From a virus: a stretch of DNA of 64,000 nt. The notes below the pieces were generated by a model that worked only from the letters and a program-made list of their open reading frames with translations, ran no database searches and had not been told where the DNA came from. This document shows, in pieces, positions 1 to 62,557 of the stretch. The stretch covers positions 1 to 64,000 of the IMG/VR virus record IMGVR_UViG_3300045988_019421. One strand, written 5' to 3'. A program made the translations under genes and the position numbers. How positions within the stretch are numbered: position 1 is the stretch's first letter; every line of letters starts with the position of its first letter.

Positions 1-42
1 CTTTATGGGGGATTTAGCGAGCTTGCGAGCGTAGGCAAGTCC
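1..42 (+). repeat. M1: composite motif copy, forward, truncated by the window edge
   Basis: ctttatggggga tttagcgagcttgcgagcgtaggcaagtcc. Homologous over ~55 nt to M10. Confidence 0.85.
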
Positions 43-89
43 AGCAATACAACTATCTTTAATACGTTGGTTTTATCCAAGTACAGTTT

Positions 90-132
90 AAAAAAAAAGA
101 ACTATCAACAGTATTGCTACTATTAATAGTTC
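90..132 (-). terminator. hairpin plus T-run (minus strand)
   Basis: Stem GAACTAT (99-105) / ATAGTTC (126-132). A9 at 90-98 gives a T-run on the minus strand. The loop is large (20 nt). Confidence 0.5.
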
Positions 133-137
133 TAAAT

Positions 138-4167: not shown

Positions 4168-4941
4168 TTACTTAATTATTAATGATGTATTACTTTCTTG
4201 TTTAGCAATAGTAAGGTCAGCATCCATACTCAAATTAGCTGCGATAATAGACTTACTAGTACAAGACTTAAATTCTACCTTATGAGGATTTTGTCCAATC
4301 CATTGAGCAAGATTAAAGTTAGTAACATTTGCAAGTTCTGATAGACGAATATGAATTGATATTTCAGTATCAATAGAGAACACATCGTCAACAGTAACAT
4401 CTACAAATGAAGATTGTTCAGATTCCTGCTCCTCTATGGGGGAACTTTCAGCTTTCATGTGAGCACTGATAATACGAGATAGATACTCAATACTAAGACT
4501 TTCCTTAATTTCAGTACTTGCTAGATATTCAGTAACTATATCCATAAAATGTCTGATAATATCAGCAATACGAACATCGTCCAACTTAGTAACAGTAGTA
4601 TTACGAGAATAGACTTTATAAGTACTACCTTCAATTACTTTATTACCGGACTTGCCCGTAGAACCAAACATTATAACTGCTTCGAGAACTGCATCTTTAA
4701 GACGTTCAAGAGTATTATTTCTTGTTTTCTTAATTTGGTTAACACGAGCAACTTCGTCACTACATTCTTTAACGTCACACTGATAACATTTAATTACTTG
4801 AAGATAATCTCCAATCTTATCTTTAAGATTATCTTCTGTAATACCTAGTTTAGCAATAATTTCTTCTGTTGCTTCACCTTCTTCGAGTTGCAAGATAATA
4901 TCCTGCAACTCTGCTTTAATACTAAATAGACTACTTCCCAT
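4168..4941 (-). CDS. hypothetical acidic protein (257 aa)
   Basis: Long ORF with a coiled-coil-like N-terminus. Contains motif copy M2 (SSPIEE). Confidence 0.7.
   Translation of the reverse strand: MGSSLFSIKAELQDIILQLEEGEATEEIIAKLGITEDNLKDKIGDYLQVIKCYQCDVKECSDEVARVNQIKKTRNNTLERLKDAVLEAVIMFGSTGKSGNKVIEGSTYKVYSRNTTVTKLDDVRIADIIRHFMDIVTEYLASTEIKESLSIEYLSRIISAHMKAESSPIEEQESEQSSFVDVTVDDVFSIDTEISIHIRLSELANVTNFNLAQWIGQNPHKVEFKSCTSKSIIAANLSMDADLTIAKQESNTSLIIK
4429..4443 (+). repeat. M2: motif copy, forward
   Basis: ctcctctatggggga. Inside the minus-strand CDS, where it is read as SSPIEE. Confidence 0.8.
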
Positions 4942-6888: not shown

Positions 6889-6915
6889 TCCCCCCATAAA
6901 GGAGTGTCGTTACTG
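6889..6915 (-). repeat. M3: extended motif copy, reverse, intergenic
   Basis: tccccccataaaggagtgtcgttactg. Confidence 0.85.
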
Positions 6916-7007: not shown

Positions 7008-7045
7008 AAAAAACCCTACTGCCAATCTCTCGACTAACAATAGGG
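7008..7045 (-). terminator. hairpin plus T-run (minus strand)
   Basis: On the minus strand: CCCTATTG ... CAGTAGGG (8 bp including one G-U), then TTTTTT. It lies downstream of 7065..7418. Confidence 0.55.
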
Positions 7046-7064
7046 CAAGGTATCAAACCATGAC

Positions 7065-7418: not shown

Positions 7419-8640
7419 TATTAAGTATTTTAATTAAATTCCCATGACTCGGGACATTCTTCACTCCTGACCTACATCTATATTCGACAAACGCTGTCTT
7501 ACCAATAAGTTTATCTTTATTAAGAAGATAACTTTCACGAGTAGAAGCATCACCAATCGGCATACATTCAAAGGTTTCACCATTAACATCATTACGAAGA
7601 ACGAATTTACTAAACTTAGGTCGTTTAGCTCCTTCGGGAATAATATCAATAATCTTGAATTTACCATCTAGTATTGGTTTACTTTTGTACATAGTAGAAT
7701 TACGTTTACCAAACTGATATGTAGCATAAGGATTACGAAGAATAGCTCCCTCGAACTTAGCTTCAACAAAGAGGTCTCGATATTTAATAATATCTTCATC
7801 TCCATTAAGATTATCGTAAGTATGAATAAGTACGAAACGTTTCTTATTATTCATGTGATAATCAAGAATAGCTTTAGCATTAACGTAATTAGGCATCTTA
7901 AACTTGCCAAACTCTGACTTCAATAATGATATACGACTAGTTTGAATCATATCATCAATAGCTAAGTCGTAACACCAAAATTGAAGAAAGCGATTATATG
8001 GACTTTTAAGATTCTCGGCAGCACTTAGAATATCATTTAGTTCAAGACCAGGAATATATAACTCTCCGTCTAATACTAAATTATCTTCTAACATACGATT
8101 GAATAGCTTGTCTGTAATAACATCATCTAGCAATACATTCTCCAATACAGGACACTTATATTCAAGTCCTTTACGACTACGAAATACAAGTCCTTTAGTT
8201 TTAAAGAATCCTTCACCACGCATAACAGCAGATATATTACAACGAACACCATTAATCTTCATTTGAGCCAATAGCCCTTGTTCGTTATTATATTCATATA
8301 TCTTAGCTAACATAGGAAGAACAAAACCTTCATTATTAGTATTGTACTTAGGAAGATAACAATCAAGATAATTAATTAAATCATCTTCATTTGTTATTTC
8401 AGCAGGAGTATTATCATATAATTCTCCTAATTCAGTACCACCTTCTCTACGTTTAGCAGCAACAATAGTTTTCCATTCTTTCTCAACACTTCTAGGTGAA
8501 ACATATTCAGATGTAGTACCTGTCTTACCGACAATACCATACTTTAGAATTATCTTATGACCTAGTATTTCTGCTTGCCAAAAGATAGGTTTACCTTGTG
8601 CATTACGCTTATAAAGAGTAATACTTTTCGATTCACTCAT
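7375..8640 (-). CDS. lig: ATP-dependent DNA ligase
   Basis: Nucleotidyltransferase motifs in order: I KINGVR (the usual KxDGxR with N for D), III LDGELY, IIIa FWCYDL, IV EGAILR, V MYKSKP, followed by an OB-like C-terminus. The N-terminal ~75 aa resembles a WGR-like module. Confidence 0.8.
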   Translation of the reverse strand: MSESKSITLYKRNAQGKPIFWQAEILGHKIILKYGIVGKTGTTSEYVSPRSVEKEWKTIVAAKRREGGTELGELYDNTPAEITNEDDLINYLDCYLPKYNTNNEGFVLPMLAKIYEYNNEQGLLAQMKINGVRCNISAVMRGEGFFKTKGLVFRSRKGLEYKCPVLENVLLDDVITDKLFNRMLEDNLVLDGELYIPGLELNDILSAAENLKSPYNRFLQFWCYDLAIDDMIQTSRISLLKSEFGKFKMPNYVNAKAILDYHMNNKKRFVLIHTYDNLNGDEDIIKYRDLFVEAKFEGAILRNPYATYQFGKRNSTMYKSKPILDGKFKIIDIIPEGAKRPKFSKFVLRNDVNGETFECMPIGDASTRESYLLNKDKLIGKTAFVEYRCRSGVKNVPSHGNLIKILNNEPTGLPNNIEEES

Positions 8641-9119
8641 ACTTCTTCAATTTTATATTTATTAGGTTGTTCACGCATAAGACCAATAGCAACTTCTCTA
8701 TCTATTATCATAGATTTATTAGTATCTATAACAATAATCCTGACTTTAGGATTAGGAGAGGGAGATGTAACAGATTTCCGCTCCTTTATGGGGGAAGATT
8801 TGGTAATCCGTTTACTAGTCTTATTAGTTCCCTTTTTCTTTTCGTAAACAATAGGAGGATTAACTTCTTCATATTTAAGATTAGCTTCATGAATCTTTTC
8901 AAGAGATTCTTTATCATAACCTAAATATATAAGAGCTGCCATTATCCATCTATATCTAAAATGAATAGTTTGAATATAAGGATAATTAGGTAAATCTAAT
9001 TCATGAAGATAACTAGCAATAGTATCACTAGTACCGTTAACTTTAAGATTGTGTTGAATCATCCTTATATCAGAAGCATCTAACTGATAACTAAACGGAT
9101 TTACGTTGTTTAACTTCAT
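8637..9119 (-). CDS. hypothetical protein (160 aa)
   Basis: ORF track; 4-nt overlap with the ligase start. Contains motif copy M4 (SSPIKE). Confidence 0.65.
   Translation of the reverse strand: MKLNNVNPFSYQLDASDIRMIQHNLKVNGTSDTIASYLHELDLPNYPYIQTIHFRYRWIMAALIYLGYDKESLEKIHEANLKYEEVNPPIVYEKKKGTNKTSKRITKSSPIKERKSVTSPSPNPKVRIIVIDTNKSMIIDREVAIGLMREQPNKYKIEEV
8781..8795 (+). repeat. M4: motif copy, forward
   Basis: ctcctttatggggga. In the minus-strand CDS, read as SPIKE. Confidence 0.9.
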
Positions 9120-9636: not shown

Positions 9637-10756
9637 ATAATGATTCAGTTTGTTCTATAAACGAATTAATAGTTTCTCTTGAATACATACTAACTAACTC
9701 CGAGAAATCTTTAGCACCATAACTTCTTGGAATAACAATAGGTATAATACCATATTCTTTTCGTAACCTACGAGCACCACGTACTCCTGTTAAATCACAA
9801 TCAAAAAAAGAAATAAGTATTCCATTGTCGTTTAGCTTAGATTGAAGCCAGTTATATTCGTAATCTTTGAGAACATAGCTCTCCGAAGTAACATTAATTA
9901 CTCCTATTTGAGACTCTGACAAATTCCCCCGTAAAGGATAGGAATGTAACCAGTAACTTAATACTAGATTGTCCTTATATGATTTAGTAATAATAATTAT
10001 ATCATACTTAGGTTTATCAAGATTAAGTATTCCAACAAGACCATTATGATTAGTTATAAACTTGATTTCTCCCTTACTTCTATCTCGAAGAGGAAAATAA
10101 CATTCGATATTATAAATACCATTACTATCAAGTCCGGTAACATAAGCATAACAAGGGTCTGATTCCTTATATGTATATTTAGGACTAGGTTGACAATACC
10201 TATTAATATACATTTGGTCAACAGGATAGACAAAATGAGTATTAAGCCAATGTAGACTAACTCCCCATTGTCCCCAAATATTCTTATCGTTATTAGTCCA
10301 AGTTCTAGTAGCTATTTCAATAATTGGTTTACTAGCTTTGATTTTAGATATTACTTGTTTAAGTAAGATTTCATTTTCTTCATCTACTTCTCCATCATAT
10401 ATTATCTTACGGAAAGTATAAGCTATATGCTTTAATATATAATAGAAATCTGCCTTATTAGCAACATTTATATGACGACCAGTTTTAAAACTTAGTACAT
10501 AAGCTACTAGGTCGAAACAATCACCAAAGAAAGAACCATTAAAATCACGAGCTTTTAGCTTATGTTTATTATTGAAAGCAAAACCAAATGTTGGATGATT
10601 ATCAACACGTAAAGGAGAACAAATAAGTTCATTATTTTCTACACAATTATTAACTACGGATATAGGTATACCCATATATTTAGCCATAATCATTTCTTGA
10701 CTAACTTTAGATAATATAAACTCTTTTGTTAAGTCTTGTCTTATTCCTCTACGCAT
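9623..10756 (-). CDS. DNA primase (DnaG/TOPRIM-like)
   Basis: The N-terminal CSPLRVDNHPTFGF resembles the DnaG CPFH..TPSF zinc-finger region but lacks several Cys. The C-terminal IIIITKSYKDN ... SFFDCDLTG is a TOPRIM-like E/DxD arrangement. Confidence 0.65.
   Translation of the reverse strand: MRRGIRQDLTKEFILSKVSQEMIMAKYMGIPISVVNNCVENNELICSPLRVDNHPTFGFAFNNKHKLKARDFNGSFFGDCFDLVAYVLSFKTGRHINVANKADFYYILKHIAYTFRKIIYDGEVDEENEILLKQVISKIKASKPIIEIATRTWTNNDKNIWGQWGVSLHWLNTHFVYPVDQMYINRYCQPSPKYTYKESDPCYAYVTGLDSNGIYNIECYFPLRDRSKGEIKFITNHNGLVGILNLDKPKYDIIIITKSYKDNLVLSYWLHSYPLRGNLSESQIGVINVTSESYVLKDYEYNWLQSKLNDNGILISFFDCDLTGVRGARRLRKEYGIIPIVIPRSYGAKDFSELVSMYSRETINSFIEQTESLFEYE
9925..9939 (-). repeat. M5: motif copy, reverse
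   Basis: tcccccgtaaaggat. In the primase CDS, read as YPLRGN. Confidence 0.8.
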
Positions 10757-10772
10757 AGTATAACTAGATAAA

Positions 10773-10800
10773 ATAAGCCTAGCTTTTACACTAGGCTTAT
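10773..10800 (-). terminator. hairpin (minus strand) after the SSB-like gene
   Basis: 10-bp stem ATAAGCCTAG / CTAGGCTTAT with an 8-nt loop. TTTTA follows on the minus strand. Confidence 0.6.
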
Positions 10801-11982: not shown

Positions 11983-12018
11983 AAAAAAAGAGCTAAATTC
12001 AATTAAGAATTTAGCTCT
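11983..12018 (-). terminator. strong intrinsic terminator (minus strand)
   Basis: Perfect 12-bp stem AGAGCTAAATTC / GAATTTAGCTCT with loop AATTAA. An A-run at 11983-11988 gives a T-run on the minus strand. It lies just after 12054..12809. Confidence 0.8.
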
Positions 12019-12053
12019 TTATAATCTAGCTTTTATCTAACCGGAAGAAGTTC

Positions 12054-13920: not shown

Positions 13921-15387
13921 TTATTCTCCTATTATGAAATCATTTTCACTATCTTTAACTATTTCATAGTCTTTTCCTCCTTTCGTTTCTGCTAGCTTCT
14001 TTTCTTCATTCGTACCTTTACAATATACCTTATATATTATATTAGGTACGGAACTAAAAGATAGATTAGGTATTCGATATTTTAAGTCTCGTATTGAGCT
14101 GCAAAGAGGCGAAGTGAAAATCACTATATCTACAACTCCTATAAAGCTCGTATCAATAGAATTATTTGCCGACAATACTTTCATATAGTCGTCATTAAAT
14201 AGCTCCAAATTTCGCGTTCTCTGCGCTCTTGCTTGCATGATTACTGGCTGTCCGATTTTAGCTCCCGTCTTATATACTTTCGGTTTACCTTTCTTATCAT
14301 AAGCCTGTATTCCTTCCATATCATTATGATAGTTTCCGCAATAGTCATATTGTAGAATACTCATTCCAGTTTGGAATATCTCGCCATTAGTCATAATAGA
14401 TTTACCTTCGTATTTTATATTAGCATTTAGGTACTCTGTTATCTTACCGGCAAATACTCCATTCTTTGAAATAATAAGTATTCTTTTGCCTATATTTTCC
14501 TTAACTATATCAAGTATTACATCTAGCTTAACAATATTATCAGTAACTACCTTAGTACGTTCTCTAATAATATTATAAGTTTGAGTAACTCTCTCAACTA
14601 AAGCACTAGGATTGTATAGTTCATCAATCTTACGACACATTGCATCGGTCATATCCATTTTAGCAGACCAACCATTACTTTCTGCTACTTGTAATCTACA
14701 AGTTTCAGCAGCAATATTAAGTCTAGTATTACCAACACGACATTCTTCTAACTTTTCAAAAGTACCAAATATAGTAACACTTTCATTAATATATTGGCTA
14801 CATTTATCATAATAGATTCTATCAGCATCAGTTAGAATAACACCCTTTTGGTACTCCTTTATGGGGGAATGAATAGAACGATTAATTAAGTGAGCATAAT
14901 TAATTTCATATACTTTAGGAGCATATTTATACATAAGTACAGCATTATCAGCAACACTATCAATAGCATTAGTAGCAAGTAGCTTAAACTTAAAATAGTT
15001 ACCACTATATTTCTCTGCAATCTTTCTGAACTTCTTTACATTAATAGTAATAAGTACATCTTTATGACTACTAGGACTAGGTTTATACGGAGAACGTTCA
15101 ACATAATCACGAGTAATTATAAGACATCGCTTATCAGTTATTAATTGTTTATGAATCTCTTTAAATTCAGAAGTATTATCGAGATAATAATTAATGTTAG
15201 CTCTATCTTCCATAGTCTCTGTTATAATAAGAGATGTTAAGTCAGGAGTTTTAGCTACCATTTTATCTAATACCATTGTAACGAAGTTCATTACGCTTAA
15301 TGGTTCGGATAAAATAACACTACCCACACCTTTGTTAGCAGACCATTTATTAGCAGCTTCATTATAAATATCGGTTACATCATTCAT
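13921..15387 (-). CDS. helicase-like protein with degenerate SF2 motifs
   Basis: 488 aa. It has no clean Walker A, but it has a C-terminal MQARAQRTRN (motif VI-like) and a two-lobe-sized layout. Contains motif copy M6. Confidence 0.35.
   Translation of the reverse strand: MNDVTDIYNEAANKWSANKGVGSVILSEPLSVMNFVTMVLDKMVAKTPDLTSLIITETMEDRANINYYLDNTSEFKEIHKQLITDKRCLIITRDYVERSPYKPSPSSHKDVLITINVKKFRKIAEKYSGNYFKFKLLATNAIDSVADNAVLMYKYAPKVYEINYAHLINRSIHSPIKEYQKGVILTDADRIYYDKCSQYINESVTIFGTFEKLEECRVGNTRLNIAAETCRLQVAESNGWSAKMDMTDAMCRKIDELYNPSALVERVTQTYNIIRERTKVVTDNIVKLDVILDIVKENIGKRILIISKNGVFAGKITEYLNANIKYEGKSIMTNGEIFQTGMSILQYDYCGNYHNDMEGIQAYDKKGKPKVYKTGAKIGQPVIMQARAQRTRNLELFNDDYMKVLSANNSIDTSFIGVVDIVIFTSPLCSSIRDLKYRIPNLSFSSVPNIIYKVYCKGTNEEKKLAETKGGKDYEIVKDSENDFIIGE
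14854..14868 (+). repeat. M6: motif copy, forward
   Basis: ctcctttatggggga. In the minus-strand CDS, read as SPIKE. Confidence 0.9.
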
Positions 15388-20723: not shown

Positions 20724-21092
20724 TTAATTAGCTTTAGTTTTATATATTTCGTATAACTTAGTAAATTCATCAGAAGGCATACATACAATAGGAGTATTAG
20801 TATGCATTTGGTCTTTAGGAACAATACAATTTCTAGCAGTAACTATTCTATCATCTTCAACAAATATAGTTTCAAGAACTAAACAATTACCACCATCTAG
20901 TATTTCCTTACACTTAGGACAAACATATATCTTGTCTGTACCAAATACAATAAGCTCATCACCACAAACTAGACATTTACCAGTTGTGACAATGAGCTTA
21001 CCATTATCTTGTTTAAACTCGTTTAACTTCGGCATGACTAGGAATACGTCTCCTTTCTTCCATTTTAACGAGTTTAACACTTTCAAATACAT
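20724..21092 (-). CDS. hypothetical zinc-ribbon protein (122 aa)
   Basis: CLVCGDE...CPKC pair. Confidence 0.6.
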   Translation of the reverse strand: MYLKVLNSLKWKKGDVFLVMPKLNEFKQDNGKLIVTTGKCLVCGDELIVFGTDKIYVCPKCKEILDGGNCLVLETIFVEDDRIVTARNCIVPKDQMHTNTPIVCMPSDEFTKLYEIYKTKAN

Positions 21093-21159
21093 TAAGAGTA
21101 AAAGCTACTAATTTATAGCTCTTTTCTTGTCTTCTAAGTTTTACTTTCTTTTTAATCAT
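21013..21159 (-). CDS. possible small basic protein (48 aa, below track cutoff)
   Basis: Translated codon by codon as MIKKKVKLRRQEKSYKLVAFTLNVFESVKLVKMEERRRIPSHAEVKRV. It overlaps the 5' end of 20724..21092 in another frame. Confidence 0.2.
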   Translation of the reverse strand: MIKKKVKLRRQEKSYKLVAFTLNVFESVKLVKMEERRRIPSHAEVKRV

Positions 21160-21178: not shown

Positions 21179-21517
21179 TTATTTAATAGGAGCATCTGAC
21201 CGCTCCGCTTCGCTCCGCTTTTCTCCCCCGTAAAGGGGTGACATTTCTTGTACTTTCTTCTTTATTTCATTTAGAATCTTACAATTGAAAGTAATAGTTT
21301 CATTACTATATAAAGTTTTACTATAAAGCTCTTTAATATCATTATTATTAGATTCATAAATGAATAAATAAAAAGAAATACAATAAATCGGTTTAATATC
21401 ACTACCATGTGAACTAGTATAAATATCTATTGTTCTCCGATTATCATCACTATCAATAACAAATACTTGTAATTTTTGAAGTTCTCTAAGTAGTTTAATA
21501 AATTCTTTTTTACTCAT
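21179..21517 (-). CDS. hypothetical protein (112 aa) whose C-terminus is encoded by composite motif copy M9
   Basis: ORF track. The last 20 codons (SPLYGGEKRSEAERSDAPIK) lie in the GC-rich composite element at 21189-21244. Confidence 0.6.
   Translation of the reverse strand: MSKKEFIKLLRELQKLQVFVIDSDDNRRTIDIYTSSHGSDIKPIYCISFYLFIYESNNNDIKELYSKTLYSNETITFNCKILNEIKKKVQEMSPLYGGEKRSEAERSDAPIK
21189..21244 (-). repeat. M9: composite motif copy, reverse
   Basis: ggagcatctgaccgctccgcttcgctccgcttttc tcccccgtaaagggg tgacat. The reverse complement aligns with M10 and M12. Confidence 0.85.
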
Positions 21518-24628: not shown

Positions 24629-24684
24629 CAGTAATGTCACTCCTTTATGGGGGAGAAAAGCGAGCTTTGCGAGCGGGACAAGTC
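24629..24684 (+). repeat. M10: composite motif copy, forward, at the edge of the divergent region
   Basis: cagtaatgtca ctcctttatggggga gaaaagcgagctttgcgagcgggacaagtc. Confidence 0.9.
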
Positions 24685-24949
24685 AAGCTACACAACAATA
24701 CAATTATTAATAATAGTACTATTAATAATGTTACCAATAATGTTACTTCTGTTATCAGTTGTAATACATAGTATTGTTATTACCGGAATCGCTCGAACTA
24801 CTATTGTCAAAGACAATGGTAGTGACGCTCTAATAATAACAACTATAATATAATAGTAGACAATATAGTAGTATTATTATTAAGACTATCAATCCGATAT
24901 AATAGTGAAACTATTATAGAGGACTAATAACAAAGACAATTACAATAAT

Positions 24950-24994
24950 AACGACCATAATTCTAACGACCATAATTCTAACGACCATAATTCT
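24950..24994. repeat. perfect tandem repeat, 15 bp x 3
   Basis: aacgaccataattct x 3. Confidence 0.95.
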
Positions 24995-25070
24995 AATACT
25001 AAGGACTAATATCATAGATATTAGGAACTTAGAACTAACAATAACAACCGACAATTAGGTTTATTATATA

Positions 25071-25170
25071 AATAGGATTCAAATCTTAACTATTAATATA
25101 ATAGAAACAACAGTATAGATTAATAGTATAGATTAATAGTATGATAATAAAATAGGATTCAAATCCTAAC
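25071..25170. repeat. 20-nt direct repeat pair exactly 80 bp apart
   Basis: aataggattcaaatcttaac (25071-25090) and aataggattcaaatcctaac (25151-25170). The second forms a small hairpin, taggattcaaatccta. Confidence 0.9.
25112..25148. repeat. tandem repeat, 13 bp x ~2.8
   Basis: agtatagattaat agtatagattaat agtatgataat. Confidence 0.85.
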
Positions 25171-25357
25171 TCCATAAACGAAGAGGTTTAGGTAGTAGTC
25201 GTAACATTGTAGGTTAGAGTAGTGAGTTAGAATGAAGGAGTAGAGGTGAGAGAGGGAGTAGTCCTACTACTTAACCAACTCATCACTCTTATCTACATCC
25301 TATTACTATTCTTACTCCACTACTATTATCTCACTCTATTGTCTACTCTACTATCTA

Positions 25358-25384
25358 GCTTAACGAGGAGCCTTAGCGACCCTT
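25358..25384. repeat. GC-rich box, copy 1
   Basis: gcttaacgaggagccttagcgaccctt. Copy 2 lies exactly 300 bp downstream. Confidence 0.85.
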
Positions 25385-25393
25385 CCGAGCATT

Positions 25394-25465
25394 GATATTG
25401 TCAATACTAGTAATAGTCTTGATACTATTGATACTATTGATACTATTGATACTATTGATACTATT
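25394..25465. repeat. tandem repeat, 9 bp x ~8 (last 5 perfect)
   Basis: gatattgtc aatactagt aatagtctt, then gatactatt x 5 (25421-25465). Confidence 0.9.
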
Positions 25466-25492
25466 TGTTGGTGTGATTGTATGAGCTTGCTC

Positions 25493-25511
25493 CTATTGTC
25501 TACGACAATAG
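25493..25511. repeat. perfect 8-bp-arm hairpin/palindrome
   Basis: ctattgtc tac gacaatag. Confidence 0.85.
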
Positions 25512-25543
25512 TCACCGACCTTGCGGACGGTCTTTTCGACCCC

Positions 25544-25602
25544 TATATATATATATATTATAATTATATACTAAAGTATATAATATATATATATATAATA
25601 TA
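25544..25602. repeat. 59-bp A/T-only quasi-palindrome (candidate DNA-unwinding element)
   Basis: tatatatatatatattataattatatac taaa gtatataatatatatatatataatata. Confidence 0.8.
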
Positions 25603-25607
25603 GACGC

Positions 25608-25626
25608 ATCTGATTCTGTATCAGAT
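25608..25626. repeat. 7-bp-arm hairpin
   Basis: atctgat tctgt atcagat. Confidence 0.8.
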
Positions 25627-25657
25627 TTTCTAACTCTGCTATTAGTCCATTACTCTT

Positions 25658-25684
25658 GCTTAACGTGGAGCTGCTGCGACCCTT
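25658..25684. repeat. GC-rich box, copy 2
   Basis: gcttaacgtggagctgctgcgaccctt. Confidence 0.85.
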
Positions 25685-25715
25685 AAAGTTTTGATGTGGT
25701 TTTGCAAGGGTTTTA

Positions 25716-25769
25716 GCTTATCAGTTGGTTAGCTTCGCTTATCAGTTGTAGCATTTCGCTTATCAGTTG
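25716..25769. repeat. iteron-like 12-mer x 3 at an exact 21-bp period
   Basis: gcttatcagttg at 25716, 25737 and 25758. Confidence 0.9.
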
Positions 25770-25787
25770 ACTAGTGTCGTTCCCGAC

Positions 25788-25818
25788 CCCGAAGGACGTG
25801 CCCGAAGGACGTGCCCGA
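25788..25818. repeat. tandem repeat, 13 bp x 2.4
   Basis: cccgaaggacgtg cccgaaggacgtg cccga. Confidence 0.9.
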
Positions 25819-25824
25819 TGGCGA

Positions 25825-25905
25825 GCATACAGTCTAGTAGTATTCTTGTAGGCATACAGTCTAGTAGTATTCTCGAACACGATTAGCAAGAGTATTCTTG
25901 AACAC
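25825..25905. repeat. 22-nt direct repeat (27-bp period) plus a reiterated 15-mer
   Basis: gcatacagtctagtagtattct at 25825 and 25852. agtattctcgaacac (25866) and agtattcttgaacac (25891). Confidence 0.9.
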
Positions 25906-25931
25906 ATGCTGAATAGTGTAACTTTAGTTTA

Positions 25932-25955
25932 GTAGTGGAGATTTCTCTCCACTAC
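25932..25955 (-). terminator. perfect 10-bp hairpin downstream of the orphan gene 25964..26668
   Basis: GTAGTGGAGA TTTC TCTCCACTAC. No clear T-run follows, so terminator function is uncertain. Confidence 0.45.
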
Positions 25956-27565: not shown

Positions 27566-27946
27566 CTCCCTTCTAATAGTTCCAATAGTAGTTCCAACAG
27601 TAATTCCAGTCCTATTCCTAAGCTCATACACATTAGTACTTCTAACAATAGTTCCTAATTCTTTCTTTCTAGTACTTCTAATTCCCTTTGTATCTATTGT
27701 TGTTAGTAGTCTAACTCTTCTTATACAATAATTATCTTATTAGTTAGTCCTATTAGTCTAATCAATTCCTTTAAGTCCTTAATTAGTCTTACTTATATTA
27801 TATAGTATTAGTTGTCTACTGGGTCTTATTGTGTAAGCCCTTTCTCCTCTTCTATCGAAGAGTTCGAAGATTTAGCATTAGGATTGTAAAAATAGAATGG
27901 TAAGATTTAGTATATATTTTGGTTAAGTATTAGATTTGTATTAGAG

Positions 27947-31967: not shown

Positions 31968-32313
31968 TTTACAGCAATCCTACTCCTTTATGGGGGATGG
32001 CGGAGCGAAGCGACGCCTAGATAAAGAAGTATTAAGAATAGCCAATGCAAAATTAATACTTTCAGAAGAGTATAAAAGTCAATATGAATCCTACAAGAAG
32101 TTATACGAACTAAAAATTAGAGATAGCTACTTGCAGGATTCTATTATATCTAAGCAACGTGAAGAAATAAAGAGGATAACAATACTAGGAAATCAAGCTA
32201 TTGTTAATCTTAATAAGGAATATAATAAGTCTAAAAGGTATAAGAAGCAACGTAATGGATTCATAGCTAGTACAAGTGTGCTAGCTATTCTTGTTGCTAT
32301 ACTATTAAAATAA
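31843..32313 (+). CDS. spanin-like protein (N-terminal signal-like segment, coiled coil, C-terminal TM); alternative start at ATG 31989 inside motif copy M12
   Basis: It overlaps 31632..31967 by 125 nt in another frame. It has a C-terminal FIASTSVLAILVAILLK. The N-terminal LLFSNASYILC is only weakly lipobox-like. Confidence 0.4.
   Translation: MRKNLIKQLVILIVLLFSNASYILCQNQSELRIQRLETKVDSLQQSYSFMGDGGAKRRLDKEVLRIANAKLILSEEYKSQYESYKKLYELKIRDSYLQDSIISKQREEIKRITILGNQAIVNLNKEYNKSKRYKKQRNGFIASTSVLAILVAILLK
31983..32017 (+). repeat. M12: composite motif copy, forward
   Basis: ctcctttatggggga tggcggagcgaagcgacgcc. It sits 16 nt after the stop of 31632..31967. Confidence 0.85.
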
Positions 32314-37369: not shown

Positions 37370-37395
37370 CCTACGGAACTTTCCGTAGGGTTTTT
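37370..37395 (+). terminator. intrinsic terminator after the portal gene
   Basis: CCTACGGA ACTT TCCGTAGG stem, then GTTTTT. Confidence 0.85.
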
Positions 37396-45127: not shown

Positions 45128-48100
45128 ATGAGAAAAGGAATAAGTATAGGTCAGCCTCTTGTTAACAATAGTGTAGATGATAATTATAATCCTCTACCTG
45201 ATGTTGATGCTAAGTATGGACCTTATAATAGTATTGCAGAAGCTCTGAAAGAATTGTCTCCTGAATTACGTTCGGTAGGTCTTACGGTAGGTATTAAACA
45301 AAATAATATTATTAATGAGTATTGGTTTAATGGAGGTATTGAAAACAAGAATCTTGTAGTTAAGCAACAAGGTGGTGGAGATGAACCAGTTCAAACTGTT
45401 TATATACAAGACAATCCTCCTGCTAATACAAATTCTCTTTGGGTAGATACTTCTGGATTAGGGGCAGCTCTTGAAGAAGATGAAAAGCTAGCTCCTATAA
45501 TTCAATCTATTCAAGTGATACAAAAGTATCTTGATACTATTGTCCATCAAAGAGATTTAATTATAAATCCAGGTCATGTTAGTAATACTTTTACTAAGTC
45601 TGTATTAAAAGAATATACTCCTATTGACCCTAATACAGGACAATTAGCAATTAGAGTTGCTGCTGTTGGTGAAAGTCTTGAACCTGAAACAGAAGAATAC
45701 GAACCTAATACTAAAGCGGTTCGTGGGCATTATGGTACTCTTAAAGAAATCCAAGATAACTTTAATAATTTTGTAGATTACGAACTTCTAATTGCTACTG
45801 ATGTAAAACGTTTATATACCAAGATTAATGGAGAACCTGTTAATCTTACTGGTACTAGTTCAGGCGGTGGCGGTAGTATTGATTATGAAGCATTGGATAA
45901 ATTAGATACTATTGGCTTCGTTGCTCCTAATGGACAAGTATATCGTGTTAAAGTTAATAACAACGGACAACTAGTAGTATATAAGAAAGAATTAGATATA
46001 CCACAAGCAGAACCTACTGGTGGACAAGAAGAACCTGGAACTGGTTGGGTATATGTAACTACTCTATATCTACAAAAGTTATATATTAACTCTTTGTATT
46101 GTGGCGGTATTACTAGTGACGAATATAGTTATAATCCATGCTCTCATAACTTCGTTGAACTTAGTAATCTTACAGGTAAAGATGTATCTCTTAATGGACT
46201 ATCATTACAGTATGGTACAGAAGGTGGAAATTGGGAAGTACTCCCTTTATGGGGGAATATCAAAGCAGGTTCGACATTCTTAATTAGAGGTGCTCAATGT
46301 TCAGTAATAAATACTAATACTACTCGTATTAAAGTTGAGACTTATGATATGGAATGGTATGCTAGTGATGGTAATCTTATTAAATTTGATAATAAGAAAG
46401 CTAAGTTTTTCTTGACTTGGGGAACGTCACCTAGTTCTGTTGCGAATCCTTATAATAACACGACTTCCCCTATAAAGGTATCTAAAGGTTATATTGATTT
46501 AGTTGGACTTCAAATCTTAAATGCTGGTGATGCTGATAAAGTTGATGCTGCTGAAAATACTGCTTATGGTTATCTTACTAGTAAGTACTTATTTACTAAG
46601 TACTATACTATGGACAATGTTAAGCAAGCTACTAAAGCTCTTAGTGCTAGAAATAACGCTAATGATATGTACTTTGTTAATCTCGAAGCAAACATAATAC
46701 CTAGAGTAGATTCTTATACTCCACGTGCTAGCTTTGAGAACAAGAATATATTCTTTAATAAGACTTTACTAGACCATACTAAACCTAATAAGGTTACTAT
46801 GACTTTAGGTAGAAAAGCTTGTTATACTCTTAATGAATCTAATGAACCTAATGATGATGCTAGTAGATGTTTCAATTGGGTGTCAGTAGGTTACTATGAT
46901 GAATATTTATGGTATCGTGCATATAGAAGTGACAATAGTTATACTAATTGGACTAAAGTAGAATCATTTAAAAATGAGACTGGTGTTCGTAAATATTATA
47001 ATCGTATTCGTGCAATAACTACTGATGGTACTCCTTTTACTACTCATAAAGTAATACTTACTCATTTAGGAGAACAATATGATACTCATACAAAGGATAA
47101 GAATATTTATTATGAATATTATGTAGGTAGAGACGAAACTTATAAGAGCGATATTCGTAGATTTGTAGTTATGAGTGAAAATGCAGGGAGCGAAGTTCTT
47201 AACTTTGTTCAGACTTCCGACCAACAAGGCTTTAATTGGGATGAATATAATGTATGGAAAATAACTGCCGGTCAAATAAAGAAAGACTTTAATAGATATG
47301 AAACCAGTAACATATCTGTGTGCTACTTTATGATTAATACTGGCGATATGACACAGAATGGTAATCGTATTAATGAATGGTTAGATTATGAAGCAGGAAG
47401 AGAACCACTATACGATATTGCTGAAATGGTAACTGTTGGTAACAATGACTTAACTCCGGCTAATGTATATGTTCTTGGTGATGGTGGTGATAACTCTAAG
47501 ATTAATGCTACTAATATTAGATTCTTCTATTGTTACGAAATGGATGAAGATAATCCGCCAGTATTTACTGTTGAAGATAAAGAAATATTTGTCGAATCAT
47601 TATATTCTTTTGATGTTGGACATAATCATTTCTTATGTGTTAATAGTGAGATAAGTGCTAATACTGAAAGAGACGTTTACGGACTTACTACTACTGGTGT
47701 GATGTATGATTTGATAAGACAATGGTGTGAAAGAGATGATGCTAATGCAATTAATGCTAAAGCTAAGATAGCTTATTGCCATGAAATGCCTTTTACTATT
47801 ATTACTCAAAATCTTATTAATTCATTTTATTGGAATAATGAAGAAAACACTAGTGTTGAGAGAAGTGGTAGTAGATTGAATTTCAATACAACTAAAGCTA
47901 ACGCTTATTGGTTCTCAAAATTCTTACAGACCCACAATTACCGTTTATGTCTTGGCGGACATAAACATACTTACAGTTGCAGTTATCCGATTTTAGAGAA
48001 CGAAAACAGCTCTATGAAGCCTATCATACAGGTCACTGCGGACGTTTTAAAGAAGGATTTTAATTCTGATGAATTATATACGGAAACTGCCGAAGGTGCG

Positions 48101-56520: not shown

Positions 56521-56546
56521 TCCCCCATAAAGGAGTGAGTATTAAC
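56521..56546 (-). repeat. M20: extended motif copy, reverse, intergenic
   Basis: tcccccataaaggagtgagtattaac. Confidence 0.9.
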
Positions 56547-56557
56547 AGTAATCACAT

Positions 56558-56571
56558 CTCTTTAAGGGGGA
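56558..56571 (+). repeat. M21: motif copy, forward; inverted partner of M20
   Basis: ctctttaaggggga, directly followed by ATG 56572. Confidence 0.6.
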
Positions 56572-61326: not shown

Positions 61327-61635
61327 ATGATTGATTACATTGTATTTCCTGTTGCTGATATAGATGAAGAGAAGTCAGCAAAGATTGACGAACTTAATTT
61401 AGTTCCTCGTAGTAATGTTAGTAAAGATAAAGTATTAATGAAGTGTCAACATTATGAAAAGGTGTTTCCTGAAAAAGTAACTAGAATAGTTACTACTGAT
61501 GAAGAAGGATTGGAAGTTATCAATATCGAATATCCTTATGAAACTTATTCTAATGAAGCACTTTCTACTTTATTGTCAAGTCCTGAATGGAATCCTAAAG
61601 AAGATGAGGTAATAGAAGATTCCCCCATAGAGTAG
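61327..61635 (+). CDS. hypothetical acidic protein (102 aa) ending inside motif copy M22
   Basis: ORF track. The last codons DSPIE-stop are the motif. A strong terminator follows. Confidence 0.6.
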   Translation: MIDYIVFPVADIDEEKSAKIDELNLVPRSNVSKDKVLMKCQHYEKVFPEKVTRIVTTDEEGLEVINIEYPYETYSNEALSTLLSSPEWNPKEDEVIEDSPIE

Positions 61636-61644: not shown

Positions 61645-61661
61645 TTTTATTGCTTAACTCT

Positions 61662-61695
61662 AAGCCCTGCTTATAACAAGTAGGGCTTTTATTTT
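61662..61695 (+). terminator. intrinsic terminator
   Basis: AAGCCCTGCTT ATAAC AAGTAGGGCTT (11 bp, one G-U), then TTTTATTTT. Confidence 0.85.
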
Positions 61696-61787
61696 GTTCA
61701 TACTATATCTAACTTTTAATAAAATTATTACTTATGGCTAAAATAGATTAATGGTCGAACTTCTTATATTATCTTTTGCTATGAGTG

Positions 61788-61803
61788 TATAGTAGCTACT
61801 ATA
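61788..61803. promoter_or_regulatory. 16-bp perfect palindrome upstream of 61841..62557
   Basis: tatagtag ctactata, 38 nt before the ATG. It uses the same GTAG/CTAC words as the 25.2 kb polarised arms. Confidence 0.3.
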
Positions 61804-61840
61804 AGATATTCTTAATTTATTAATCTAAACCTTATTTATT

Positions 61841-62557
61841 ATGCAAGTAATTGAAAAAGTTAAAGTCGTTCCCGAAGGTTATAATGGCGCAGGGATGGAC
61901 GGTTATGGTCGCCGTGATGTTAACGGTAAAGCTAATGCAGGTCTTACGCTTGGTATTATCGGTACTGCTCTTGGAGCTTGGGCTTTATTTGGTAATCGTC
62001 GTTCTGCTGGTGTTCTCGGAACTGGTGCAGGTCTTATGGGAGACGGTTCTACAAACATTAATGTAGTTGGTGCAGGAATGGGAAGTGCTGGTGCTCCTAC
62101 TGCTTTCCAAGCATGGAGTAAATCTTGTGAGGATACTCTTGCTTTGCAGGGAGGTTTGTATCAGTGGGCTTTAACTCAACAGAGCCAACGCTTCCAAGAC
62201 CGTCAGGTAATAGACAGTGAAATGTTCGGTTTGTATAAGTCACAGATTGATGCAGACTTCTTGCTGTACAAGGGAAACCGTGATAACTATGATTCTCTTA
62301 AAGCAGAGATTAGCGAACTTAAAACGCAAGTTGCTGTTAGTGCTGCTATTCGTCCTTATCAGGATAAACTTATCCAGTGCGAAATCGAGAGAGCGTTCAC
62401 CGCAGGTATCAATTATGTCGATAAAAAGACTTGTAATGTTATCTATGGTGTTACTTGTCTACCTAATGAGCCTACTACAACAGGTCTTGTTGGTAGAAAT
62501 GCCAATGGTTGTCTACCGTGTGGATTTACTCAAACGGCTAGTACTCCTGCTACATAA
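61841..62557 (+). CDS. Gly-rich membrane-associated protein (238 aa)
   Basis: GC-richer codon usage. TM-like LTLGIIGTALGAWALF, with Gly-rich stretches. Confidence 0.65.
   Translation: MQVIEKVKVVPEGYNGAGMDGYGRRDVNGKANAGLTLGIIGTALGAWALFGNRRSAGVLGTGAGLMGDGSTNINVVGAGMGSAGAPTAFQAWSKSCEDTLALQGGLYQWALTQQSQRFQDRQVIDSEMFGLYKSQIDADFLLYKGNRDNYDSLKAEISELKTQVAVSAAIRPYQDKLIQCEIERAFTAGINYVDKKTCNVIYGVTCLPNEPTTTGLVGRNANGCLPCGFTQTASTPAT

Follow-up and report, generated by a model that had tools for sequence, protein, structure and literature searches.

A dispersed sequence motif, here called the core, recurs throughout positions 1 to 64,000 of the virus record IMGVR_UViG_3300045988_019421 (the window, 64,000 nucleotides (nt) of a crAss-like phage genome), and some of its copies are followed by a GC-rich tail. 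The comparison with related genomes shows that core and tail form a family-conserved unit, in which the tail is predicted to be a strand-specific hairpin, and that this unit is placed at module boundaries. The GCG(G)AGC half-sites of the tail, taken for a direct repeat recognised by a dimeric protein in an original prediction made from the window alone, are, according to this comparison, the arms of a small stem-loop, which is strand-specific and is located after some of the cores. As a whole, the core-hairpin unit is best, though tentatively, explained as acting on a single strand in the punctuation of transcription units, with a promoter followed by a leader hairpin as the favoured version.

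No other viruses of the human gut are as abundant as the crAss-like phages, and the programming of their transcription and replication is scarcely understood. To our knowledge, no promoter motif has been found for their giant injected RNA polymerase. The motif gives concrete testable sequences in the cultured phage crAss002, for which strand-specific RNA-seq data exist, and in the prototypical crAssphage (p-crAssphage). Furthermore, the lineage-specific core could mark regulatory compatibility groups among crAss-like phages.

Composite copies of core and tail

With Bacteroides phage crAss002 (Jahgtovirus, Intestiviridae), the window shares 95-97% identity; window position 1 corresponds to crAss002 position 64777, and window position 27776 to crAss002 position 1. 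The replication genes are located on the minus strand from position 1 to about 24.6 kilobases (kb); from about 28 kb onwards, the plus strand carries the structural and polymerase genes. All four composite copies reported before (M1, M9, M10 and M12) were found again in their places, and consist of the following parts:

1-12, plus strand: M1 core (CTTTATGGGGGA), truncated by the window start, so that 3-6 bases are missing at its beginning; crAss002 has the core in full
17-31, plus strand: M1 tail GCGAGCttGCGAGCG, GCGAGC-TT-GCGAGCG; hairpin with tandem G.A mismatch
32-60, plus strand: third box common to M1 and M10 (..GGCAAGTCCAGCAATACAAC..), from alignment A2
21224-21238, minus strand: M9 core CCCCTTTACGGGGGA; the following minus-strand gene, relative to which it is in sense orientation, starts about 65 nt downstream (ATG near 21159)
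21200-21218, minus strand: M9 tail GCGGAGCgaaGCGGAGCGG, GCGGAGC-GAA-GCGGAGCGG; outer GC stem, 3x3 purine loop and GC-GAA-GC tip
24629-24639, plus strand: M10 upstream arm ACAGTAATGTCA, preceding the M10 core
24640-24654, plus strand: M10 core CTCCTTTATGGGGGA, pointing away from the minus-strand block, the first gene of which is 58 nt distant
24655-24659, plus strand: M10 spacer between core and tail
24660-24675, plus strand: M10 tail GCGAGCtttGCGAGCG, GCGAGC-TTT-GCGAGCG; the feature to which the original prediction had drawn attention
24676-24700, plus strand: M10 third box GGACAAGTCAAGCTACACAAC, from the alignment with M1
31983-31997, plus strand: M12 core, 16 nt after the stop codon of a gp6-like gene
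31999-32017, plus strand: M12 tail GGCGGAGCgaaGCGACGCC, GGCG-GA-GC-GAA-GC-GA-CGCC; the direct repeat is broken and the hairpin kept

The spacer between core and tail is 1-5 nt long here, and 1-6 nt over all copies compared. The tail signature GCG.AG...CG.AGC always has a core directly upstream in the window, in the complete genomes of crAss002 and of its relative cr107_1 and in p-crAssphage; together with the core counts given below, this confirms the composite form as a real non-random unit. M1 and M10 lie in the same orientation and are alignable over approximately 56-65 nt. Their homology and their position on both sides of the minus-strand replication block hold as proposed, and two p-crAssphage composites (95864+ and 28172+) bracket the plus-strand block of that phage in the same way. 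The window start itself lies in the middle of a back-to-back composite pair, the inverted partner of which (M1') is located about 25 nt upstream in crAss002, cr107_1 and several IMG/VR contigs.

The M10 core contains an ATG, which would open a 68-residue open reading frame (ORF) with a hydrophobic segment (24647-24853, plus strand). This start codon was rejected as an explanation of the motif: in cr107_1 the frame is stopped after 15 codons, and many cores have ACG or AAG in the place of ATG. The ORF is probably not a gene. In the annotation of crAss002, the same stretch is covered by an ORF on the opposite strand (gp78).

M9 is missing in roughly half of the related contigs examined. In two contigs (L165 and L166, at about 7955-8010), the M9 core and its upstream arm are duplicated in tandem (35 base pairs (bp)), and only the second copy has kept the tail.

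The tail as a strand-specific hairpin

In the predicted structure, two GCGAGC arms pair as G-C, C-G, G.A, A.G, G-C and C-G. From the base upwards, the tail would consist of an invariant outer GC/GC stem, a symmetric purine internal loop with GA or GNA opposite GA or GNA (its G and A nearly invariant), an inner Watson-Crick stem of 2-6 bp with compensatory substitutions, and a loop that is usually C-GNA-G or C-GNNA-G. Since the purine internal loop within the stem is symmetric, the direct repeat arises as a by-product, CGNAG opposite CGNAG being formed automatically.

The pairing was counted in an alignment of 25 tail variants (A1). Many of these variants are related and the structure was derived from the same sequences on which it was counted; with this limit, 91.7% of the cells form standard pairs compared to 69% in shuffles (reached in 0 of 500), and the covariation score is 0.325 versus 0.068. 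Changes on both sides occur in five of the six inner-stem pairs, and slid controls are paired to at most 45%. G.U was found in just 2 of about 133 paired cells.

Individual loci illustrate the exchange of the inner stem. Among the IMG/VR relatives of crAssphage it reads GAGC/GCTC, GGAC/GTCC or GGC/GCC upstream of repL, and GAGTGC/GCACTC or GAGTAC/GTACTC at the 28088 locus; G.T intermediates are present and the loops remain GNA (GTA, GAA, GCA). In a relative with about 68% nucleotide identity, the tail at the M9 position has CGAG opposite CGAG across a different inner stem (GGAC-acca-GTCC). The M1' tail is a perfect GCTAGCC-gtta-GGCTAGC in crAss002 and cr107_1, and GCGAGCC-gata-GGCGAGC in most other genomes. 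This change of GCGAGC to GCTAGC in both arms turns two G.A mismatches into two Watson-Crick pairs, and is predicted by the hairpin and by the direct repeat alike.

The identity of the two half-sites within a copy, from which dimeric protein recognition had been deduced, applies to M1, M9 and M10, as well as to M1' (GCTAGC/GCTAGC in crAss002, GCGAGC/GCGAGC elsewhere). It fails for M12 (GGAGC versus GCGAC), for most p-crAssphage copies and for M9 variants of the relatives, which have unequal arms (GCGTAGC/GCGGAGC and GCGAAGC/GCGGAGC); of the 19 variants with 3x3 loops, 12 have unequal central bases in the loop. Moreover, the half-site period is 8 nt in M1, 9 in M10, 10 in M9, 11 in M1' and 18 in the contig L084, which is incompatible with a fixed dimer geometry. 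With variable spacing, unequal half-sites in many relatives and a hairpin that fits all 25 variants of A1, the step from a co-varying direct repeat to a dimer is not upheld.

In 15 of 16 tails, folding of the motif strand is as good as or better than that of the complement. In nearest-neighbour models, the shuffle fraction is at most 0.05 in 8 of 16 tails, and the M12 tail reaches -10.0 kcal/mol (0.9th percentile). Owing to the mismatches, the motif strand forms the better hairpin of the two strands, from which we infer that the element works as a single strand, which could be RNA or the non-template or lagging-template strand of DNA.

On the motif strand, no T-run as in an intrinsic terminator follows the tails. 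The complement carries TTTTCT or TTTATT after M9, M10 and M1', but the stem is weaker there. The comparison with Rfam 15 (ribozymes, small RNAs and cis-regulatory RNAs) gave no match at the gathering score in the window, and in more sensitive scans by E-value, the surroundings of M10 and of the p-crAssphage pair matched only by chance or to generic long hairpins. No transfer RNA or transfer-messenger RNA was found in the scan.

A (GCGNA)n-like 18-mer, GCGNAGCGAAGCGNAGCG, is common in unrelated, mostly GC-rich viral contigs (IMG/VR contigs L188-L295), often at the tip of long perfect hairpins (L209, L214, L224, L261). A hairpin of L206 that resembles a terminator has this sequence at its tip (AAAAAACAA-GCGAGCgaaGCGAGC-TTGTTTTTT). 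Pairing of its central loop bases is not enriched in these contigs, with 37 pairable combinations compared to 31 expected.

Distribution of the core

The core has the consensus cACTCCTTTAYGGGGGAa (15-18 nt) and occurs in at least 16 copies in the window, of which four have a GC-rich tail. The 12-mer CTTTATGGGGGA with up to two mismatches matches 20 times in the window, compared to 2.8 +/- 1.65 times in shuffles, and 0 of 100 shuffles reach 20. The complete genomes of crAss002 and cr107_1 contain about 26 copies each, and per complete genome 24-32 degenerate cores were seen versus 0.003-0.02 expected from base composition. An information-content profile showed that conservation is confined to the consensus given above, with little beyond position -5. 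The upstream arm that had been described as shared, GTAATGTCA, is exact in M10 and in the copy at 61621(-) only, and weak elsewhere. Apart from the composites, the following copies without a tail were annotated in the window:

4429-4443, plus strand: core in a Gam-like gene, antisense
6890-6904, minus strand: core in sense orientation, between the terminator 7046-7013(-) and the host-type -7 box TATTTTTG (6823-) upstream of a gp52-like gene
8781-8795, plus strand: core in a gp55-like gene, antisense
9925-9939, minus strand: core in the primase gene, sense; orthologous in L084, Rudgehvirus and p-crAssphage
14854-14868, plus strand: core in the helicase gene, antisense; orthologous in L084
29976-29990, plus strand: core 16 nt upstream of a PD-(D/E)XK exonuclease gene; the syntenic p-crAssphage copy (93678-) is tailed
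46242-46256, plus strand: core in a gp19-like gene, sense
56521-56571: back-to-back inverted pair (56521-56535, minus strand; 56557-56571, plus strand) between gp20-like and gp21-like genes
61621-61635, minus strand: antisense core overlapping the stop codon of ORF 61327-61635, followed by the terminator 61662-61688(+)

The cores are located on both strands and in all reading frames. In the pair at 56521-56571, the ATG of gp21 follows immediately 3' of GGGGGA. Neighbouring cores have opposite orientation in 58 of 83 pairs overall and in 19 of 19 pairs that are less than 1.2 kb apart. A long-range RNA duplex between such inverted neighbours was rejected, as the variable positions of the partners do not co-vary. 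A motif at the peptide level could be ruled out: the in-gene cores are read in every open frame and in both orientations, giving PLRG, SFTGD, LLYGG and SPI[EK]E in crAss002 and PSSTGG, ILYGG, HPLRG, TPRGG and PPVED in p-crAssphage, and selection therefore acts on the DNA. A host Chi site is unlikely, given three Bacteroides-infecting lineages with three different cores.

Near or beyond the right end of the window, crAss002 has antisense cores (44803-, 50152- and 58946-) in the genes of the virion and polymerase proteins gp31-gp33. These share an extra flank (ttgctgctcCTYTATGGGGGA) and encode SPIEEQQV or SPIKEQQI. The gp32 core is followed by a perfect hairpin of another type, GCGGC-gtca-GCCGC.

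Conservation in other crAss-like lineages

Each lineage has its own version of the core. In p-crAssphage the core is TCCTCYACGGGG (ccaTCCTC[TC]ACGGGG[ag]gt..), with 32 copies on both strands, eight of them tailed. The tails share the architecture of the crAss002 group, one (GCGTAGCgaaGCGGAGCG) being identical to M9 variants of that group, and are followed by GGTCYAAGCTA, which is similar to the third box of M1 and M10. The unit of core, predicted hairpin and third box is, on this comparison, conserved between the crAss002 group and the prototypical crAssphage. In Rudgehvirus jaberico, 24 copies of CTCCTYTACAGGGG... were found, the most frequent 11-mer of the genome, none of them with a GC-rich tail. 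Four lineages have an orthologous core site in the primase gene, and the version of the core is in each case the lineage's own. Sites that are conserved and carry lineage-own cores therefore point to DNA-level selection and to concerted change with a trans-acting factor.

Several positions are syntenic between the crAss002 group and crAssphage. Where the replication block has its 3' end, beside a gene of the N4 gp49 family, there is a back-to-back pair (M1'/M1 in the window, 28088-/28172+ in crAssphage). At the divergent junction, a single copy is found beside an origin-like region rich in AT and in repeats; this copy is M10 in the window and, upstream of repL, 95864+ in crAssphage. The interval upstream of crAssphage repL that contains 95864+ is also where an origin was placed by OriFinder (PMC10983915). 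Further syntenic places are one composite a few kb into each block and one site upstream of the PD-(D/E)XK nuclease gene.

In crAss001 (L296 and L297), a different 9-mer, CTTCTGGAG, is over-represented with 27 copies on both strands, also within genes. Short dispersed motifs may be general among the Crassvirales, with unrelated sequences in the different families. Full-text literature searches with both core sequences and keywords found no description of the motif family; no account of its architecture or of its presence in the prototypical crAssphage seems to exist in the literature searched. As a kind of element, cis-regulatory repeats with hairpins are known from phages.

Orientation and gene context

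Sense orientation was found for seven of the eight p-crAssphage composites and for M9, M12 and M1', and composites are mostly located directly after a stop codon or upstream of a start codon. Among the intergenic cores, a tally gave about 16 sense versus 6 antisense copies, four of the latter being partners in back-to-back pairs; the in-gene cores are divided into about 16 sense versus 19 antisense. Several sense cores are followed by a gene start within 0-65 nt. M10 and the p-crAssphage copy 95864+ have no upstream gene on their own strand, and are therefore at the start, not at the end, of whatever is transcribed there.

A possible promoter-like signal with a leader hairpin

A phage-specific promoter-like signal with a leader hairpin is the mechanism we prefer, as a possibility and with considerable doubt. 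The core would be the recognition site of a co-evolving phage transcription component, either the virion RNA polymerase or a factor that redirects the host polymerase, and transcription would start in or beside the G-run, as at T7-type ...TATAGGGAGA promoters. The tail would then be the leader hairpin of transcription units beginning at module boundaries. Transcripts from M10 and M1 would be short or non-coding, next to the origin-like region, and cores without a tail would serve the same factor as weaker or otherwise used sites.

In favour of this mechanism, the core is as strict and as lineage-specific as T7-type promoters. Furthermore, the virion RNA polymerase injected by crAss-like phages, for which no promoters are known, transcribes single-stranded templates in vitro (10.1101/2020.03.07.982082), and the virion polymerase of N4 uses extruded DNA hairpins as promoters (PMC13434306). 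A bolder reading, which we consider unlikely, is a genome-wide cis code shared by the crAss-like phages of the Intestiviridae, the prototypical crAssphage among them: some 25-32 strictly conserved, lineage-specific sites would co-evolve with a phage factor, and 4-8 hairpin "master" copies would mark positions near the origin and at module boundaries. In its boldest version, these would be the promoters of the virion RNA polymerase, read on extruded or single-stranded DNA as in N4 and independently evolved.

The likeness to the T7 group was judged by eye. It comprises a strict motif of about 18-23 bp in about 15-30 copies that co-evolves with the phage polymerase, and a TA(Y)-GGGGGAGA-like start region that is sometimes followed by a stable leader hairpin (as at phi10). 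Unlike the sites described here, T7 promoters point with the genes and are almost never antisense within genes, and no gene for a T7-like polymerase is present here. With the early promoters of the N4 virion RNA polymerase, the unit has in common a short conserved sequence beside a small GC-rich strand-specific hairpin with a purine-rich loop of 3 nt (GC-GAA-GC, GC-GTA-GC and related tips here), and both phages inject a virion polymerase that accepts only single-stranded or denatured DNA in vitro. N4, however, has three such promoters at one genome end, whereas here 4-8 composites and about 20 tail-less cores are distributed genome-wide on both strands, even in late genes. In addition, the crAss polymerase is of the two-barrel type and not T7-like, the spacing between core and hairpin varies, and the template-strand geometry of N4 would make most composites fire antisense.

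PeSL cassettes of T4-type phages are likewise repeated units of promoter and stem-loop at gene boundaries, beside hyperplastic regions, for which a role in modular shuffling was proposed. They contain an early promoter for host sigma-70, whereas the core has no match to the Bacteroides -33/-7 elements; besides, the cores are also found at conserved positions in essential genes, and break points are not enriched at them.

Several observations weigh against a promoter with a leader hairpin. The main objection is that half of the tail-less in-gene cores are antisense to their gene, which is unusual for promoters. Two p-crAssphage composites (44964- and 58738-) lie inside long genes, which is less easy to reconcile with a promoter than with a signal in the transcript. 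TAnnTTTG boxes are located 73-100 nt downstream of three cores, so that the core may be dispensable as a promoter at these places. No shared motif was detected upstream of the early transcripts of phage phi14:2 (10.1101/2020.03.07.982082). With regard to the hairpin, the relatedness of the A1 variants and the derivation of the structure from them, mentioned above, have to be taken into account. The tails of M1, M9 and M10 show z values of about 0 in nearest-neighbour models, that is, no significant stability, and since the energy models give no unusual stability, the hairpin of these three copies rests on comparative evidence. Finally, C-GNA-G triloops and the near absence of G.U would suit a DNA hairpin better than an RNA leader.

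Alternative explanations

Punctuation at the RNA level is considered unlikely. Here, the composite would be part of a polycistronic messenger RNA, and hairpin and core would be bound by a phage protein as an antitermination, attenuation, processing or stabilising site. The sense composites 13-54 nt after upstream stop codons, between temporal modules, fit this explanation, as does the combination of an invariant hairpin base with a free apical stem, which is typical of protein-recognised RNA hairpins. A linear box with a hairpin resembles lambda nut (boxA + boxB) also in its short spacer, its sense position near operon starts and the few copies per genome. In contrast to nut, the box occurs here about 20 times without a hairpin and on both strands, the loop is of another type and no N-like protein was identified. 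The hairpin is not followed by a U-tract on the motif strand, M10 and 95864+ have no same-strand gene upstream, and no Rfam family was matched. The GNA triloops are stable in DNA, G.U is as rare as stated for A1, and the tail-less cores are found equally on the antisense strand.

A replication signal in folded single-stranded DNA, in which the hairpin on the lagging template or in extruded form would direct priming or origin firing together with the core, is decidedly unlikely. Comparable are the single-strand initiation signals of G4 and phiX or the primer-RNA hairpins of the N4 type. M10 abuts a non-coding tandem-repeat region of 1.2 kb including (TA)30, 95864+ is followed by an AT-rich tract within the OriFinder interval cited above, and the second repL gene of p-crAssphage also has a composite before it. 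If forks leave this region both ways, the sense strand would be the lagging-strand template. Cores on both strands with close pairs always inverted fit a process that involves two strands. Tandem G.A pairs and C-GNA-G loops are especially stable, and such loops with purine mismatches mark very stable DNA mini-hairpins such as d(GCGAAGC). However, some composites are remote from any origin, within late genes for structural proteins and polymerase, the distance from core to hairpin is not fixed (1-6 nt), matches to DnaA boxes are at chance, and no initiator, HUH or Rep-like protein was detected among the 20 window proteins scanned. Folded single-stranded sites in general (integron attC, IS200/IS605 ends, REP/RAYT, G4-type priming) share the conserved hairpin foot, the strand specificity by non-Watson-Crick pairs, the free apical stem and GNA or GNNA loops as in d(GCGAAGC). 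They differ in that the elements described here are syntenic and not mobile, and no integrase, HUH or RAYT gene is found among the same 20 proteins.

A dispersed operator or roadblock is very doubtful. In this case, the core would be bound genome-wide by a stoperator-like, architectural or protective DNA-binding protein of the phage, and the tails would be passenger gene-end hairpins spread by duplication or gene conversion. The 24-32 asymmetric sites per genome, genic in all frames as well as intergenic, have conserved positions and a lineage-own consensus, which therefore indicates co-evolution with a trans-acting factor; the stoperators of cluster A mycobacteriophages (L5) are similar in having 20-35 asymmetric sites of 13-18 bp per genome, coding and intergenic, with a consensus differing between lineages. 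Alternating orientation and consistently inverted close pairs would fit a polar barrier needed both ways, and crAss-like phages persist without host lysis (PMC8042965, PMC10983915). Stoperators, however, are co-oriented with transcription and have a known repressor, whereas the cores are in mixed or alternating orientation, a subset has an obligatory hairpin, and a repressor is neither known nor was one found. Tails occur only with a core, always on its G-run side, and are conserved across subfamilies; the tail is therefore part of the unit and not a passenger.

The model of the original prediction, in which half-sites kept identical are read in duplex DNA by a dimer and the copies mark termini or recombination junctions, is largely refuted, and what remains of it is most improbable. 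For termini and junctions, it could be noted that the window begins within the M1'/M1 pair, that the homology to cr107_1 breaks 45 nt after the M10 tail and that an insertion abuts the core at 61621(-). The genome of crAss002, however, is reported to be circularly permuted with headful packaging (PMC8042965), and the sequence is uninterrupted across M1'/M1 in crAss002, cr107_1 and several IMG/VR contigs. Because complete genomes run continuously there, the window start at M1 is no genome end but the result of arbitrary cutting or of a broken assembly at a 19-bp palindrome. IMG/VR contigs that end near M10 do so 322-2541 nt away, within the repeat region. Only 3 of about 28 homology break points are located within 250 nt of a core, which is about chance.

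Neighbouring signals and genes

Canonical intrinsic terminators delimit the transcription units of the window and are separate from and unlike the composite tails. The following signals were annotated:

98-133, minus strand: intrinsic terminator with a 16-bp stem and nine U (z = -3.98), ending the minus-strand replication block just right of M1
7013-7046 (minus strand), 10773-10800 (minus strand), 11987-12020 (minus strand), 37370-37389 (plus strand) and 61662-61688 (plus strand): intrinsic terminators with stems of 11-16 bp and T-runs
6823-, 11957-, 13885-, 27931+ and 37654+: examples of host-type -7 boxes (TAnnTTTG) upstream of several genes
24700-25950, no strand assigned: non-coding AT-rich repeat region beside M10, with the 15-mer TAACGACCATAATTC (x3.2), the 13-mer AGTATAGATTAAT (x2.4), the 9-mer ATACTATTG (x6.9), (TA)30, a 21-mer (x2.6) and CCCGAAGGACGTG (x2.4)

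At three places, the order is terminator, core, -7 box and gene. The core as a host-type Bacteroides sigma-A promoter was rejected, as it has neither the -33 TTTG nor the -7 TAnnTTTG. The region 24700-25950 is hypervariable between relatives and poorly conserved compared to crAss002 and cr107_1, and many IMG/VR contigs end in the equivalent region; its appearance is that of a replication origin or of a region for early non-coding RNA. DnaA boxes were discarded as an explanation. In addition to the initiator, HUH, integrase and RAYT-type proteins mentioned above, no RepL-like protein was detected among the 20 scanned window proteins.

A phyletic profile was used to search for a tail-binding protein, selecting crAss002 proteins that are present in p-crAssphage and absent from the tail-less Rudgehvirus. 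Apart from a marginal 24-residue match of gp44, it returned the N4 gp49/Sf6 gp66-family protein only, which has weak similarity to Acb4 and is probably unrelated. In the window, this protein is encoded at 920-1516 on the minus strand, and contains a Phage_gp49_66 domain (PF13876, E = 7e-15) and a crAss001_48-related domain; the similarity is to the anti-CBASS sponge Acb4 (PDB 9e4w, E = 0.51). Its crAss002 counterpart, gp38, has a homologue in p-crAssphage and none in Rudgehvirus.

Compared to cr107_1, the window has an insertion of 684 bp (61658-62341) that starts beside the core at 61621(-) and its terminator. ORF 61841-62557 (238 amino acids) has no Pfam match, and the region after the gp23-like gene is different in all three complete genomes. 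Free-standing HNH endonuclease genes of crAss002 (gp58 and gp61), with positions corresponding to window 10775/10797 and 12843/12870, are missing from the window and from cr107_1. The second gene downstream of M9 (20724-21092, minus strand) encodes a small protein with a weak match to an A2L-type zinc ribbon (E = 7e-4), and small zinc-ribbon proteins cluster around this part of the replication block.

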